Part shown: piece after piece, positions 34,381-40,289 of the stretch
How positions within the stretch are numbered: the first letter of the stretch is position 1
Layout: each line of letters begins with the position of its first letter
DNA from: an uncultured Acidobacteriota bacterium
GTDB taxonomy: Bacteria; Acidobacteriota; UBA6911; RPQK01; JAPXNP01
Length of the DNA stretch: 64,000 bases
Assembly (NCBI GenBank): GCA_963777605.1
Contig: CAVZRV010000007.1
Coordinates: 320,001 to 384,000, forward strand
Direction: 5' to 3'
Position numbers and translations under genes: made by a program
Notes under the pieces: model-generated
What the model was told of the DNA's origin: nothing
The model's database searches: none
Seen by the model: the letters and a program-made list of their open reading frames with translations, nothing else

Positions 34381-35280
34381 TCAGTTCCCGGCTGGAAGTC
34401 GCCTTATTCGGTCGCCAAAGAATTCCGACTCCGGAACCTTCGCGTTCATCTCGATCATGTCCGGCTTGTAAGAAACAATCTTCCCAGCCGAATCAAGCCC
34501 CACCACCAGGCGCCCGAGAAAGCGTCCTCTTTCGACCGTATTCAGGACTACGGCATTCTGTACCTGGCTCGGGCGAGCCAGGAAGAACCGTCGTTCCATC
34601 GCGATTATTACGTAGATTTCGGGGTTGGCGTCCGCCAGTCTTTTCAGGACGTCACCGGGTAGATCGGCCAGCACTACGAGGAAGTCAGCTTCTTGAAGAA
34701 CCTTTTCCTTGATCCGGGCAACGGCTTCCAGAGGATCGATTCCCGAAAACCCCGAACGTGGAGGAACCCGGGCCGTGTCCGCCAAACCCAAAAACCCAAT
34801 CCGAACATCGGCATCCCCGACCCTTACCGTCTTGATTGCGTAAGGGGCCGGCGCAGCGGCGGAAGACGGGGCCTTCAGGTTAGTCGAGATCACCTCCGCC
34901 CTGGTGAGCATCACCTGCGACAAGGTGGGCCAGTAGTGGAGATCGTCCGCCGTGAGGTTGAAAACATCGACCGGGATCCTGTCCAGGGCCTCGGTCATGA
35001 GTTCGTTAATGGGAGTGGAGGCCGGGCCCGCAGGCCTGAAATAGCCTCCGGCGTCAACGCTGATCACCGGCCCCGCATGCTCCTGCCTGTAGTTGTCGAT
35101 GTAGCCGGCTCTCCGAGCCAGTCCCCCGGTGGGGTTGACCTTTCACCCACAAGGTTCGTGTGCGCCATGGACGTAGCCGGTAAAGAAAAGGGTGAGCTCA
35201 CCCTGCCCGAACAGGCTGCTTCCCGAGCCCACAACAAACAGGCCGACGACCAACGAAACCAGGAAACGAATCCGCATCAC
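34381..35280 (-). CDS. UshA-like (5'-nucleotidase fold) probable selenoprotein; in-frame TGA at 35143-35145
   Basis: Signal peptide, then LTLFFTGYVHGAHEPCG*KVNPTGGLARRA...VDAG, continuous in frame with ORF 34381..35067. Confidence 0.85.
35105..35139 (-). promoter_or_regulatory. candidate bacterial SECIS element
   Basis: Downstream of TGA: GTCAACCCC-ACC-GGGGGAC hairpin and CTGGCTC-GGA-GAGCCGG hairpin with a G-leading loop 28 nt from the TGA. Confidence 0.5.
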
Positions 35281-35377
35281 GTTGGAGATTCTAACGGAAT
35301 CTGTCCCGCCTGGTCAGATATTCTCTTTACAAAGAACACGGCGGTTAGGTAAAACTCGGAGATCCGGAGCGCACTTT

Positions 35378-35893
35378 ATGCACCAGACCCTGTTGCTCAA
35401 TGCGACCTACGAACCGTTGCAGATCGTTTCATGGAAGCGCGCCGTCAAAATGCACTTTCAGGAGAAGGTTGAGATCCTGGAGCACCACAACCGCGAAATC
35501 CGAAGCGTCCGGATGTCGATGAAAGTCCCATCGGTGATCCGCCTGGTCAGTTATGCGCAGATTCGCCGTCGCCACGTCGCAATTCGATTCTCGCGTCAGA
35601 ATCTCTTCGCCCGCGACAAGTTCCGCTGCCAGTATTGTGGCAGCCGTCTACCCTCTTCCGACCTCACCTACGACCACGTTTTACCGGTTGCCCGCGGCGG
35701 CCGAAAAACCTGGGAGAACATCGTCACATCCTGTATGCGCTGCAATCGGGAAAAGGGCAACCGCACCCCTGAGGAAGCGGGGATGCGCATCCTGAAGCGG
35801 CCCTCCGCCCCTCTCGGCTTCCCCGCGAAGATCCAGCTTCTTTTCCATCGGATCCAGGCTCCCGAGAACTGGCAAGCCTACATTTTCAGCTGA
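35378..35893 (+). CDS. HNH endonuclease (McrA-like HNH_5 family)
   Basis: LLNATYEPL, PSVIRL, RDKFRCQYCG, DHVLP..RGG..TWEN.VT.C..CN..KG.RTP. Confidence 0.92.
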   Translation: MHQTLLLNATYEPLQIVSWKRAVKMHFQEKVEILEHHNREIRSVRMSMKVPSVIRLVSYAQIRRRHVAIRFSRQNLFARDKFRCQYCGSRLPSSDLTYDHVLPVARGGRKTWENIVTSCMRCNREKGNRTPEEAGMRILKRPSAPLGFPAKIQLLFHRIQAPENWQAYIFS

Positions 35894-36619
35894 ATGGGTC
35901 GAGCAGTGATCTATCCCATTACGCTGGCACTGTTTGCAAGGTATCCTCGCCTTGGAGAGGTCAAGAGCCGGCTTGCCGCGCGAATTGGTGAAGTTGCTGC
36001 ACTTCGAGTTTACCGTGCGCTCCTTTCCGACTCAGTGCTTCACTTCGGGAGTCTTCCTGCAGCTCGAAAGGTCCTTTACTTGACCGGCTGCAGCCGAGAA
36101 GAGGCGGACCGGTTCCTGTCGGAGGAGCCAAACGCAGCCGGCTTCAAAGTAGACCTGCAAGGCGAGGGCGACCTGGGTTCCCGGATGTGCGCGGTCGCCG
36201 ATACTGCCCTCCGTGAGTCGGGTGGGATCGTCTTCCTCGGCAGCGACAGCCCCACCGTTCCCCTTCCCTACCTCCGGCGAGCACTCGACGAGGTGGCAAG
36301 AGGGACTCCAGTCGTCCTCGGGCCGTCCTGCGACGGGGGGTATTTTCTGATCGGACTCTCGCGGCCGCGGCCTGAACTCTTTCACGACATCGATTGGGGA
36401 AGCGACCTTGTTCTCAGCCAAACCGTTGGCCGAATCTCGAGCGAAGACGTTCTCCTTCTTCCCTACTGGTACGACATTGATCAATGGGAAGACCTTGCCC
36501 TCTTGCGCCTGGACATCTCTCGAAGCCCCGCCTCCACCTTTCCCGGACTGCGCTCGCTCATGATCGATGACGGTGTCCCGTCCGGGCCGAAACCATGTGA
36601 TTCAAAGCGGATCTGGTAA
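35894..36619 (+). CDS. DUF2064/TIGR04282-type glycosyltransferase-like protein
   Basis: FARYPRLGEVKSRL, QGEGDLGSRM, GSDSP, LGPSCDGGYFLIG, IDWGS, DID. Confidence 0.88.
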   Translation: MGRAVIYPITLALFARYPRLGEVKSRLAARIGEVAALRVYRALLSDSVLHFGSLPAARKVLYLTGCSREEADRFLSEEPNAAGFKVDLQGEGDLGSRMCAVADTALRESGGIVFLGSDSPTVPLPYLRRALDEVARGTPVVLGPSCDGGYFLIGLSRPRPELFHDIDWGSDLVLSQTVGRISSEDVLLLPYWYDIDQWEDLALLRLDISRSPASTFPGLRSLMIDDGVPSGPKPCDSKRIW

Positions 36620-36739
36620 ACCGCTTGTGATACTTTTAGTAAGGATGTGCCATCTACTATTCATGGGTGCCGATCAAGTTGACCGGCCCAAGTTAGGACT
36701 CTTTAGAATCATCGGGTTGACGAGAGGGAACGCTGACTG

Positions 36740-37597
36740 ATGTCCGACGAGCAACAGACGCTCTTCGAAAAAGTCAAGAATGGGCTGGAGAACCTTCTGG
36801 CGTTGAAGGTAACGGATGCGGAGCGGGTTCGCTACGCGGACGACCCACTCAACGTTTTCGGGGAGGATTTTTCCAACCAGCGACCGCTGAGAGTCGCCGC
36901 CACCCTGGCTATTCTGTTCCACATCCTGCTCTTTCTGGTCAGCCTTCCTTTCCTGCAACGGCAGATTTTCGTCCCGACCAAGGAGGTCCTGCCACTTCGC
37001 CAGTTGGCGCTTCCTTCACTTCCCAAAGGCGGAGGGCCGCCCGAACCCCAGGTTCCGAAGCCAAAACCGGAACAGGCCGTCCCGAAGCCTAAACCAGTTC
37101 TCGTGCCAATCCCTGATCCGACTCCGCTCGAACCCGAACCGATCCAGCGCGAGGCCGTTGTGGACACTCCCAAGGTCCTTGACGAAGTTGCGTCGGAGTT
37201 GAGCATGGGTGACATCAGTGCGCCGGCCGGACACGGCCAGGGCGTGGAAGGGACCGGGACCGGGATGTCGAGCGGAGAAGGCCCCGCCGCCGGTGCGGGT
37301 GACGGCGTCTACACGCTGGGCAGCGGAGTGACGAATCCCGTTCCGATCAAGCAGACCACCCCCAGTTACACGGATGAAGCGATCAAGGCCAAGGCCCAGG
37401 GTGTAGTTCTCCTGCAGGCGATCATCCGAAAAGATGGTCGGGTAACCGATTTCAAAGTCATCAGAGGCCTGGGTTTCGGGCTGGAGGAAAAGGCAATCGA
37501 AGAAATCGCTTCCAACTGGAGGTTTCGCCCCGGGACACTGCAAGGCAGACCCGTGGACGTGCTGGCGACGATTGAAGTTCAGTTCAATCTGCGCTGA
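36740..37597 (+). CDS. energy transducer TonB family protein
   Basis: TM with His (ILFH), Pro-rich linker, PSYTDEAIKAKAQGVVLL, WRFRPG. Confidence 0.88.
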   Translation: MSDEQQTLFEKVKNGLENLLALKVTDAERVRYADDPLNVFGEDFSNQRPLRVAATLAILFHILLFLVSLPFLQRQIFVPTKEVLPLRQLALPSLPKGGGPPEPQVPKPKPEQAVPKPKPVLVPIPDPTPLEPEPIQREAVVDTPKVLDEVASELSMGDISAPAGHGQGVEGTGTGMSSGEGPAAGAGDGVYTLGSGVTNPVPIKQTTPSYTDEAIKAKAQGVVLLQAIIRKDGRVTDFKVIRGLGFGLEEKAIEEIASNWRFRPGTLQGRPVDVLATIEVQFNLR

Positions 37598-37642
37598 TTC
37601 CGAGTTCTCTCTCTTGCGATCTCTCGTTTCCGACTAAAATTC

Positions 37643-38758
37643 ATGCACAGACTGGCGTTTACTGTGGGCGCGGGCGTTTTCCTGTTCGACTTTCTCACCA
37701 AGTGGATCGTCAAGAACACGCTGGCACTCCATTACTATCCCATCATCAACGGCTTCGTAACCCTTCAGTACGTCCGCAACGAAGGTATTGCGTTCGGCAT
37801 GTTCCGCAACCTTCAGAACGACTGGAAGCCGGTGATTCTGTCTGCAATAGCGGTCATTGCGATCGCTGTCGTCTGCTACTACATCCTTTCCCTGCCCCGC
37901 ACCGATCGGCTCATGTTCCTGGCGCTCGGACTCCTGCTGGGAGGAATCGCAGGCAATTTTCTCGACCGTGCGATGCACGGATACGTGGTTGATTTCGTCA
38001 CACTCCACATCTATGACTGGTTTGCCTGGCCAACCTTCAACCTGGCTGACACTGCGATTACCTGCGGTGTATTCCTGATCCTCATTCAAACATTCATGTT
38101 CGAGGACGAGCCATCGTCGAACCAGGGTCACTCCGCCGGCGCCTTGTTCCTTCCCCTGCTGCTTCTCTCGCCCAGCCCAGTCGCTACCGACCAGATCGTC
38201 CACCAACTGCAGCGGGAGTATGAACACATCCACTCCTTTCGGGCTGACTTCCGGCAGATCTTCAGGAGCCGGGGGATTGAGCAAACCGAGACCGGGATTG
38301 TTATGATGAAGCGTCCCGGAAAGATGTACTGGGAGTACAAAGAACCGAAACTCAAGATCTTCGTAGCTGATGGCAAAAAGACTTTCTTCTATGTTCCTGC
38401 TGACAAACAGGTGATTGTTTCCAGCCTCGACCTTGAAAACAGTGACTCTCCATTGCTTTTCCTGCTCGGCATGGGAAATATCGAGCGTGACTTCCTGGTT
38501 TCCCTCGAATCGGAGGACGGTCCAGAGGCCGCAGATACGCTCCTGCTCCGTTTGACGCCGAGAACTCCCCAGCCTGAGTTCTCTTACCTCTTGGCTGCGG
38601 TGGAGAAAGAGAAATACTGGATTCGCCGACTGACCGTGGTTGAGCCAATCGGGCAGGAGAACGAATACGTGTTGTCGAACGTCGAGCAGAATGTAGACAT
38701 TCCCGACAAGAGATTTCAATTCAAGATACCTTCGAACGCCGAAGTCATACAGCAGTAA
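37643..38758 (+). CDS. lspA: fusion of lipoprotein signal peptidase II (LspA) and outer-membrane lipoprotein carrier LolA
   Basis: NEGIAFG, GNFLDR, VVDF, FNLAD (LspA), then SFRADFRQ, KRPGKMYWEY, FVADGK, SPLLFLLG (LolA), with no stop between. Confidence 0.85.
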   Translation: MHRLAFTVGAGVFLFDFLTKWIVKNTLALHYYPIINGFVTLQYVRNEGIAFGMFRNLQNDWKPVILSAIAVIAIAVVCYYILSLPRTDRLMFLALGLLLGGIAGNFLDRAMHGYVVDFVTLHIYDWFAWPTFNLADTAITCGVFLILIQTFMFEDEPSSNQGHSAGALFLPLLLLSPSPVATDQIVHQLQREYEHIHSFRADFRQIFRSRGIEQTETGIVMMKRPGKMYWEYKEPKLKIFVADGKKTFFYVPADKQVIVSSLDLENSDSPLLFLLGMGNIERDFLVSLESEDGPEAADTLLLRLTPRTPQPEFSYLLAAVEKEKYWIRRLTVVEPIGQENEYVLSNVEQNVDIPDKRFQFKIPSNAEVIQQ

Positions 38759-38768
38759 GGGGTGCAGG

Positions 38769-39764
38769 GTGGTCAGAAAGCGCGCTTATATTTCGTCGTT
38801 GGGAATGCATGTTCCGGAAAACCGGGTCACGAACCGGGAGTTGTCAATGCGGGTGGAAACTTCCGACGAGTGGATTCGTGAACGGACCGGTATCTGTGAG
38901 CGACGGATCGTATCCCCCGGTCAGAGCAACAGCGACCTTTCGGCCAAGGCCGCCCAGAAATGTCTTGCTGCAAGCAAGTGGAAACCGGAAGACATCGACC
39001 TGGTCATCGTAGCGACGGTCACGCCCGACATGATGTTCCCTTCGACTGCATGCCTCGTCCAGGAGAAGATCGGAGCGCTGAATGCCTGGGGCTTTGACCT
39101 CTCAGCCGCCTGTTCGGGATTCATCTTCGCGATGGCAACAGGGAGCAGCTTTATCGAGAGCGGTGCGCACCAGCGTGTTCTGATCATCGGAGCTGATGTC
39201 ATGTCGAGCATCGTCAACCCTGACGATCGCGCAACCTGCGTACTGTTCGGAGACGGCGCAGGTGCAGTCCTTCTTGAGGCCACCGAAGACCCCAACACCG
39301 GCATCGTGGACTCGATTCTTCGAGGGGACGGCTCGGGCGGGAAATTCCTGTTCATGCCGGGAGGTGGGTCCCGCAACCCGGCGTCGAAGGAAAGCATCGA
39401 ACAGGGCATGCACTTCGTTCACCAGGACGGACGCAGCGTTTACAAGTTCGCCGTCAAACACATGTCCGATATCTCCTCGGAGATCTTGCAGAGGAATGGG
39501 ATTCCCGCGGAACAGCTCAAGCTCTTCGTCCCGCACCAGGCAAACCTCAGGATCATCCGTTCCACCGCTGAGCGGCTGGGATTGCGGAAGGATCAGATCG
39601 CCGTCAACATTGATCGTTTTGCCAACACGACGGCCGCAACCATCCCTATATGCCTGACCGAGAGCTATGAATCAGGCCGACTCGCCAAGGGAGACACTGT
39701 CCTGCTCTCCAGTTTCGGGGCCGGGTTCACCTGGGGCAGCATTCTTCTCAGATGGGGAATCTAG
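38769..39764 (+). CDS. fabH: 3-oxoacyl-ACP synthase III
   Basis: ETSDEWIRERTGI, AACSGF, LFGDGAGA, PHQANLRI, NT, FGAGFTWG. Confidence 0.96.
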   Translation: MVRKRAYISSLGMHVPENRVTNRELSMRVETSDEWIRERTGICERRIVSPGQSNSDLSAKAAQKCLAASKWKPEDIDLVIVATVTPDMMFPSTACLVQEKIGALNAWGFDLSAACSGFIFAMATGSSFIESGAHQRVLIIGADVMSSIVNPDDRATCVLFGDGAGAVLLEATEDPNTGIVDSILRGDGSGGKFLFMPGGGSRNPASKESIEQGMHFVHQDGRSVYKFAVKHMSDISSEILQRNGIPAEQLKLFVPHQANLRIIRSTAERLGLRKDQIAVNIDRFANTTAATIPICLTESYESGRLAKGDTVLLSSFGAGFTWGSILLRWGI

Positions 39765-39767
39765 TGG

Positions 39768-40289
39768 TCAGATAAAAAGGTCGTCCTCCGGGTTATCGCG
39801 AACCGGAGTGTGCTCTGTCTTTCTGGAAAACAGGTAGTCAACGCCTACCTTCAATCCTCTGATCACCGAAGAGATCTCGACGATCGGCCGCAGGAGGTCC
39901 TGCTGGACAATGTCGGTGGTTTGACGGAACTTCGCCACGGTATCGCCGACCGTCTCGTCGACTTTGTCGGCCTGTCGTTTCCCCACTTCCACGAAGCGAT
40001 CGACGAGTTGATCCAGATCCCGGGTCCTGGTCTCCACCATCCGGTTGACATCCTCCGCCCGGTTGGAGAGGTTCTCGAAGACTGACTTGAGATGCTCCAA
40101 ACCCGAGACGATGTCCTGCAACCGGGTGAGTACATCCCGGGCATCCTGCTCCAGGTCAGTGGATAATCGGCTCAGACGACTTACCGCATCGCCAGTAGAA
40201 CGCATCGTGCGCCAGACAACAACCGCCTGGGCCACAATCGAGAGGGCCGTAACGCCCACGAAAATTACAAGTAGGACCTCGACCGTCAA
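39768..40289 (-). CDS. DUF948-like membrane-anchored coiled-coil protein
   Basis: N-terminal TM followed by amphipathic helices; downstream of a YtxH gene. Confidence 0.6.
   Translation of the reverse strand: MTVEVLLVIFVGVTALSIVAQAVVVWRTMRSTGDAVSRLSRLSTDLEQDARDVLTRLQDIVSGLEHLKSVFENLSNRAEDVNRMVETRTRDLDQLVDRFVEVGKRQADKVDETVGDTVAKFRQTTDIVQQDLLRPIVEISSVIRGLKVGVDYLFSRKTEHTPVRDNPEDDLFI

Follow-up and report, generated by a model that had tools for sequence, protein, structure and literature searches.

A conserved in-frame fusion of signal peptidase II and the lipoprotein chaperone LolA in a group of Acidobacteriota

The fused gene, its products and its genome

The window analysed here is a stretch of 64,000 nucleotides from an uncultured Acidobacteriota bacterium, and all coordinates given without a contig name refer to it. 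Positions 37643..38758 of its forward strand hold a single open reading frame that starts with ATG and encodes 371 amino acids followed by a stop codon, with no stop in between. A preliminary description of this DNA had read the frame as a signal peptidase II (LspA) that continues into the lipoprotein chaperone LolA, and profile searches confirmed that reading. The N-terminal half matched Peptidase_A8 (Pfam PF01252) over residues 11-151 (E 1.6e-36, 126.1 bits against a cut-off of 25) and passed the lspA equivalog model of NCBIfam (TIGR00077, 112.3 bits, cut-off 73.95). The C-terminal half matched LolA (Pfam PF03548) over residues 195-361 (E 2.1e-27, 96.3 bits against a cut-off of 23.6) and passed the lolA equivalog model (TIGR00547, 136.3 bits, cut-off 112). 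The frame encodes a complete LspA and a complete LolA, each above the curated cut-offs. The motifs quoted earlier, GNFLDR, VVDF, FNLAD, FEDEPSSNQGH and AGALFLPLLLLSPSPVA, are all present in the translation.

The features of the gene all lie on the forward strand. The LspA domain comprises residues 1-152 (37643..38098), as delimited by the Pfam and NCBIfam matches, an AlphaFold2 model, Foldseek, and phmmer matches to 6ryo, 9emz and 5dir. In an alignment with the Staphylococcus aureus LspA 6ryo, Asp108 in GNFLDR (codon 37964..37966) falls on the Asp of GNFIDR and Asp136 in FNLAD (codon 38048..38050) on that of FNIAD. We take these two residues, the Asp of GNxxDR and the Asp of FNxAD, to be the catalytic pair of LspA; both are invariant in 47 of 47 aligned fused proteins. 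Comparison of junctions divides the linker that follows into three parts. Residues 153-164 (FEDEPSSNQGHS, 38099..38134) are acidic and predicted to be cytoplasmic, residues 165-175 (AGALFLPLLLL, 38135..38167) form a hydrophobic h-region, and residues 176-181 (SPSPVA, 38168..38185) resemble a c-region, with a putative signal peptidase I (SPase I) site after Ala181 (PVA|TD). Residues 182-371 (38186..38755) make up the mature LolA domain, as placed by Pfam, NCBIfam and Foldseek.

The AlphaFold2 model used 47 fused homologues as input and reached a mean pLDDT of 86.3 and a pTM of 0.52. Its LspA part has four transmembrane (TM) helices (residues 2-25, 62-83, 89-112 and 134-152) and periplasmic beta strands. 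The linker, residues 153-181, is modelled with low confidence (pLDDT about 51-61, the acidic part included), and the only helix in it covers residues 166-174 of the h-region, 9 residues against 19-24 for each of the four TM helices. A beta-rich domain begins at residue 182 with an N-terminal helix (182-194), which is followed by an antiparallel beta half-barrel. When the two halves were compared with solved structures by Foldseek, the N-terminal half resembled LspA (5dir_C, TMt 0.90, rmsd 1.9; 6ryo_A, TMt 0.83), and the C-terminal half resembled LolA (8v1k_A, TMt 0.83; 4ki3, 0.81; 1ua8, 0.82; 6f3z_B, 0.79). The modelled fold of the C-terminal domain is the open beta half-barrel with a helical lid that is characteristic of LolA. 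Complex prediction of the LspA part (residues 1-158) with the LolA part (residues 180-371) on a 47-row alignment scored 0.01 against a mark of 0.32, which gives no answer either way.

The gene is preceded, 45 nt upstream, by a gene for a 285-aa protein with a TonB C-terminal domain (36740..37597, forward strand) and followed, 10 nt downstream, by the gene for FabH, 3-oxoacyl-ACP synthase III (38769..39764, forward strand). No further genes of the lipoprotein pathway were found nearby. Two genes upstream of the fusion, the frame of an HNH endonuclease (35192-35893, forward strand) ends exactly at the start of a DUF2064 gene (35894-36619, forward strand). On the reverse strand, a frame of 361 aa (37634-38719) is nearly coextensive with the fused gene and has no Pfam match; long antisense frames are also present in relatives, and this one is probably a shadow ORF.

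We then took an inventory of the lipoprotein pathway in the genome, which is 96.7% complete. It has no Peptidase_A8 match besides the fused gene, which is also its only strong, and only orthologous, LolA. Lgt is present, as is Lnt (292.5 bits, above its cut-off), and there are two SPase I genes. LolA works with an ABC transporter of the LolCDE/LolDF type; a LolC/E-like gene, at 341 bits against 362, and a LolD-like gene, at 268 against 308, lie next to each other at C6:88825-90700, both below their equivalog cut-offs. The absence of lolB that had been reported for its proteobacterial position extends beyond the locus, with 0 matches to PF03550 across the 96.7% complete genome.

Other genes with related domains were also seen. 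A second, weak LolA-like gene (PF03548, 47.8 bits, C7:22436-22966) lies in a separate cluster with the parts of an ABC exporter (C7:22436-25174), namely a LolD-like ATPase (C7:23437-24096) and a permease resembling FtsX/LolCE (C7:24131-25174), and similar weak LolA-like matches occur in most relatives, split and fused alike. The protein P0167 (797 aa) is a membrane protein that combines a BlaR1-type peptidase M56 domain (residues 18-308), a GWxTD domain (437-527) and a C-terminal LolA domain (616-782). The protein P0154 (358 aa) carries two tandem Peptidase_A8 domains, an LspA-LspA duplication.

Spread of the fusion and its origin from neighbouring genes

The preliminary description cautioned that the assembly shows indels elsewhere, so that a false indel, in the assembly or in the sequencing, might have joined two separate genes. 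Reads of the exact strain across the junction were not among the runs that we found: a search of sequencing runs returned five, with word shares of at most 0.09 each, none with the exact strain and none recorded as RNA. Nevertheless, the same in-frame join recurs throughout the relatives. A search for homologues gave 109 clusters at 90% identity, of which 82 carry both Pfam domains in one protein, 25 LolA only and 2 LspA only. The fused clusters, drawn from JGI, ENA, NCBI and Logan, reach down to 42% identity. Among 41 related genomes, 21 have the fused gene, several of them on a single contig, and no stop or indel separates the two domains. Moreover, metagenome contigs of relatives from two runs bridge the junction with 0 gaps, one over 38016-38433 with 52 mismatches and one over 38096-38343 with 27 mismatches. 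These results refute an artefact for the family and led us to reject the caveat; that a false indel created the join in the window is improbable in the extreme.

The fused genomes comprise all 16 of the family of the window (f1), all 3 of f3 and both of f12. In one f1 genome (G013) the fused gene is recovered as two contig-end pieces, each of which reads through the junction. No second LspA match was found in any fused relative among the 41 genomes. Separate lspA and lolA genes, in that order and directly adjacent, are found in 18 of the 41, and the remaining 2 (74% and 90% complete) have a weak LolA-like match only. Sampling 301 Acidobacteriota genomes evenly yielded 13 single full-length matches, 5 in f1, 7 in f3 and 1 in f12; the sample includes three unpublished genomes (G063, G182 and G018), and the conclusions are independent of these. 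In f17, which belongs to a sister order of the same class, lspA and lolA are adjacent but split. In the genomes of other classes that were inspected, such as G052, G304, G166 and G082, without a systematic count, the two genes lie at unrelated places. A search of genome contigs with this one protein gave proteobacterial LspA genes for the most part, and the sole acidobacterial genome among the results had the gene split over two contig ends.

Clustering at 50% identity shrinks the fused family to very few representatives (P0071, P0077 and P0142); judged by sequence, the fused proteins are one moderately diverse family. In 47 aligned fused proteins many positions of LolA, too, are invariant, and the linker varies freely. 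The LspA-LolA fusion is, on this comparison, real and under selection, because clusters with both domains extend to 42% identity, the two Asp residues and the LolA positions are invariant, and the linker is free to vary. The proteins are listed in NCBI as 'signal peptidase II [Acidobacteriota bacterium]' and in JGI as 'lipoprotein signal peptidase/chaperone LolA'.

The fused proteins of f3 (P0044-P0061, P0046) have a low-complexity C-terminal extension of 40-160 residues after LolA, and gene calls within one of the 90% clusters of this family range from 419 to 530 aa.

The sister families offer a view of the arrangement before fusion. Their lspA-lolA pairs have the same gene order and encode orthologous proteins, with 42-58% identity per domain, but they are two open reading frames. 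In 13 of 24 split loci the stop of lspA overlaps the start of lolA. Ten of these overlaps are the four-base sequence ATGA (L016, L018, L019, L020, L021, L023, L026, L028, L115 and L117) and three span 8-17 nt (L014, L025 and L027), while in the remaining split loci the two genes lie 2 to about 250 nt apart. One of the overlapping loci, L023, comes from the unpublished genome G018, which is also counted among the 41 related genomes; leaving this locus out gives 12 of 23. Where the two genes overlap, lolA lies in a different frame from lspA, and therefore a small indel would suffice to join them.

The composition of the linker fits such an origin. The C-terminal tail of free LspA proteins is acidic or polar, and free LolA proteins begin with an N-terminal signal peptide. 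The fused linkers contain the same two pieces in the same order, in the window the acidic residues 153-164, then the h-region and then SPSPVA. By this comparison the fused linker is the C-terminal tail of LspA plus the former signal peptide of LolA, since the sister families have lspA and lolA adjacent and often overlapping.

We calculated a maximum-likelihood tree from 47 concatenated LspA and LolA rows, from which the linker columns and the G018 row were excluded, with f17 as the outgroup. The fused proteins of f1 (support 100/99), f3 (97/88) and f12 (100/100) were each monophyletic, and the backbone of the order was without resolution. The tree needs 2 state changes, and 200 bootstrap trees gave 2-3, with a single change in 1% of them. 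The tree points to one to three fusion-state events, with more than one favoured.

Three split loci have lspA and lolA in the same frame, parted by one to three stops: a TAG-TGA-TAA cluster in L029 (genome G022), a single TGA in L114 (G100) and a single TAG in L024 (G033). These pairs may represent stages on the way to fusion or fission, or places where the stops are occasionally read through. At another locus, L129 (G246:C46), lspA follows ileS, an order known from many bacteria, with lolA about 1.2 kb further downstream. A frame of 1087 aa that includes lspA gave the appearance of an IleRS-LspA fusion in this genome; we rejected it, because the frame is a GC-rich open frame that overlaps ileS in another frame.

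The linker and the fate of LolA

We asked what becomes of the LolA domain once it has been joined to LspA. The LspA C-terminus is cytoplasmic in solved structures, and the four-helix model of the fusion is consistent with this; therefore, the next hydrophobic stretch is expected to cross the membrane N-in/C-out. The preliminary description had reasoned in the same way that a further hydrophobic segment behind the cytoplasmic end of LspA would carry LolA outward, and its logic holds. It left two outcomes for the segment: a polyprotein from which SPase I releases LolA at PVA|T, or a membrane-tethered LolA that takes lipoproteins directly from the peptidase.

The properties of the linker bear on both. 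Its hydrophobic core has a median length of 15 residues (range 7-27) in 82 fused proteins, compared with 13 in 22 free LolA signal peptides, and is often interrupted by Pro. The whole linker has a median length of 36 residues (30-83, n=75), and in the 82 fused proteins no spacer has been added between the core and LolA. Hydropathy was computed with crude scripts for 75 full-length fused proteins as the best 19-residue Kyte-Doolittle window, for which 1.6 is the classical TM threshold. The linkers had a median of 1.44 and 16 of 75 reached 1.6, close to the free LolA signal peptides (median 1.51, 9 of 22). All 75 proteins reached the threshold in TM1-3 (median 2.43) and 43 of 75 did so in TM4, which, with a median of 1.64, is only marginally more hydrophobic than the linker. 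As far as its sequence and the model can tell, the linker has kept the look of a signal peptide, not that of a membrane anchor, and some lineages, with the 16 linkers that reach the TM threshold in mind, could retain an anchor.

Possible cleavage sites were then examined. At least one site that follows the -3/-1 rule is present after the core in 69 of 82 fused proteins and in 19 of 22 free LolA proteins. In a comparison with shuffled tails, 68 of 75 linkers had such a site where 61.4 were expected, and 48 had Ala at -1 where 40.6 were expected; for the free LolA signal peptides the excess was comparably slight, with 21 of 22 where 17.8 were expected. The -3/-1 rule has little power, and the small excess over composition-matched shuffles decides nothing on cleavage. 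Many relatives have textbook SPase I-type sites (VNA|S, LNA|Q, VGA|Q, CSA|Q, VRA|Q). The site of the window, PVA|T, is poor, with Pro at -3, and in its two closest relatives the corresponding residues are AVG|T and AIG|T. No lipobox was found in any of the 75 linkers, and therefore LspA does not appear to cut its own fusion.

We consider it fairly probable that the fusion is a polyprotein in which a cut by SPase I releases a periplasmic LolA. This reading is favoured because the linker keeps the size of a signal peptide and, with no spacer, directly precedes the sole orthologous LolA of an organism that has no LolB. Both an internal sequence of the n-h-c type after the last TM helix and SPase I genes were found in the genome, although the n-part in the window is acidic. 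The stretch before the core has a net positive charge in 52, no net charge in 10 and a net negative charge in 20 of the 82 fused proteins, and the value of -3 in the window runs contrary to the positive-inside pattern. The weak site with Pro at -3 also speaks against cleavage in the window. We infer export by the linker, cleavage and the position of the cut from the sequence and the model. Of the two outcomes offered in the preliminary description the evidence leans to the first, with the dimensions of a former signal peptide kept and the site that it named being the poorer part of the case.

The sequence of events would be as follows. In ancestors of the order, neighbouring and often ATGA-overlapping lspA and lolA genes would have been merged by a small frame-joining change. 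The product would be inserted in the inner membrane as a four-helix LspA, and the former signal peptide of LolA would start the export of LolA, N-in/C-out like a normal signal peptide. SPase I would cut near Ala181|Thr182, thereby freeing a soluble periplasmic LolA, and the old signal peptide would stay on LspA as a short fifth segment. LspA would then remove the signal peptides of lipoproteins as usual, and LolA would ferry the triacylated lipoproteins from the LolC/E-LolD transporter to the outer membrane without LolB.

Alternatively, LolA could remain uncleaved, with the hydrophobic segment acting as a fifth TM helix or signal anchor that holds LolA at the periplasmic face beside LspA. Anchored by the old signal peptide, LolA would capture each lipoprotein upon removal of its signal peptide, and would serve for hand-off or holding at the inner membrane rather than for shuttling. 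The poor c-region of the window, the 13 of 82 linkers in which a looser scan found no -3/-1 site, and the linkers with a 19-residue hydropathy of at least 1.6 (16 of 75) would fit such a tether. Retention of the fusion in three family-level clades could reflect a benefit of proximity, P0167 likewise has a LolA domain at the C-terminus of a membrane protein, and the role of mobile carrier could in principle fall to the weak LolA-like paralogue. That paralogue, however, is found in split and fused genomes alike and so does not compensate for the fusion. The core is short, with its 9-residue model helix, and often broken by Pro, and there is no spacer that would allow a tethered LolA to reach the periplasmic domain of LolC or the outer membrane. 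The AlphaFold2 model shows no confident packing of the two domains against each other (pTM 0.52, pLDDT 86). In addition, in a genome without LolB the sole orthologous LolA would be expected to travel to the outer membrane. For bacteria that lack LolB, a 2024 review (PMC11784454) suggests that LolA alone completes delivery to the outer membrane, and therefore a free LolA would be needed. Taking both sides together, we regard the tether as unlikely though worth keeping; for a direct hand-off from the peptidase, which the preliminary description had attached to it, we found no support.

A further alternative is that LolA is translated separately from a start in the linker, either Met152, an internal ATG at the end of TM4 (38096..38098), or a TTG at Leu168, which would make the fused protein minor or irrelevant. 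The preliminary description had found no separate start for LolA in the other frames at the junction, and this was borne out for the forward strand, where the other-frame ORFs are 37702-37992 and 37857-38078. It had named the ATG at 38096 as a possible internal start, and this codon did not prove to be conserved as one. An in-frame ATG, GTG or TTG lies between TM4 and the core in 17 of 23 fused loci, and a few relatives (L002, L032 and L124) have a Met right at the core, but 6 of the 23 loci have no such codon ahead of the core. A Shine-Dalgarno (SD)-like 4-mer was found upstream of the candidate start in only 1 of 23 fused loci, and no SD-like motif precedes Met152; the true start of the fused ORF is also without an SD motif, so the absence is weak evidence. 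A protein started at Met152 in the window would have an n-region with a net charge of -3. A scan for promoters and terminators over 36600-39900 stayed at chance level, with 1 promoter-like site against 0.9 expected, and that one lies on the opposite strand. We think it distinctly improbable that LolA is made from such a start.

Relation to known systems and significance

The LspA half of the fusion belongs to the same HMM family as the stand-alone enzymes of Pseudomonas aeruginosa (5DIR) and S. aureus (6RYO/6RYP), and shares their fold and the Asp residues of GNxxDR and FNxAD. Enzymes of this family cleave diacylglyceryl-prolipoproteins and are sensitive to globomycin. In contrast to the stand-alone enzymes, the chain of the LspA half runs past the cytoplasmic end, through a signal-peptide-like segment, into a predicted periplasmic domain of 190 residues. 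The LolA half likewise passes the equivalog HMM and has the same fold as the stand-alone LolA of E. coli (1IWL/1UA8), P. aeruginosa (2W7Q) and Francisella tularensis (8V1K), with TMt values of 0.75-0.83. Whereas a free LolA has its signal peptide at the N-terminus, the fusion has none there for LolA, and the predicted export signal lies within the chain, after the four TM helices of another enzyme.

A precedent for an internal signal of this kind is the FbcH cytochrome b-c1 precursor of Bradyrhizobium, in which a polytopic membrane protein is followed within the same chain by a signal sequence and a periplasmic domain, and which is processed into two proteins. We use it as a working analogy for the mechanism; the proteins are unrelated, and cleavage is experimental in FbcH and inferred in the fusion. 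A second likeness is to the bifunctional LolA of LolB-less bacteria such as Caulobacter, as described in the same review (PMC11784454), which likewise works without LolB but is a free protein. With LolB missing from the genome, the acidobacterial LolA probably also inserts its cargo into the outer membrane.

A full-text search of the literature found no description of an LspA-LolA fusion. The words 'fusion', 'fused' and 'Acidobacteri' do not occur in the available part of the 2024 review on outer-membrane lipoprotein trafficking (PMC11784454). The sequences are already public under automatic names, and what is new is the architecture and its implications. NCBI records name the fused proteins only 'signal peptidase II', which leaves a gap in annotation.

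LspA and LolA are essential in the biogenesis of outer-membrane lipoproteins and are antibiotic targets. To our knowledge, they are separate proteins in all bacteria studied, and we know of no model organism in which lipoprotein maturation and sorting are coupled at the inner membrane. The gene tree, for which two or three events are a better fit than a single one, suggests that overlapping (ATGA) pairs fuse with ease. Should LolA stay anchored, which we hold to be the less probable case, maturation would be coupled directly and physically to sorting at the inner membrane, with onward transport by the LolC/E-LolD pump or another carrier. If the fusion is cut, as the polyprotein reading proposes, it would be a rare bacterial housekeeping polyprotein processed by signal peptidase I. 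A natural fusion that is conserved in one group of soil bacteria within the Acidobacteriota, and is the cell's only copy of both proteins, suggests that the signal peptide of LolA can direct export from an internal position, downstream of a polytopic enzyme.
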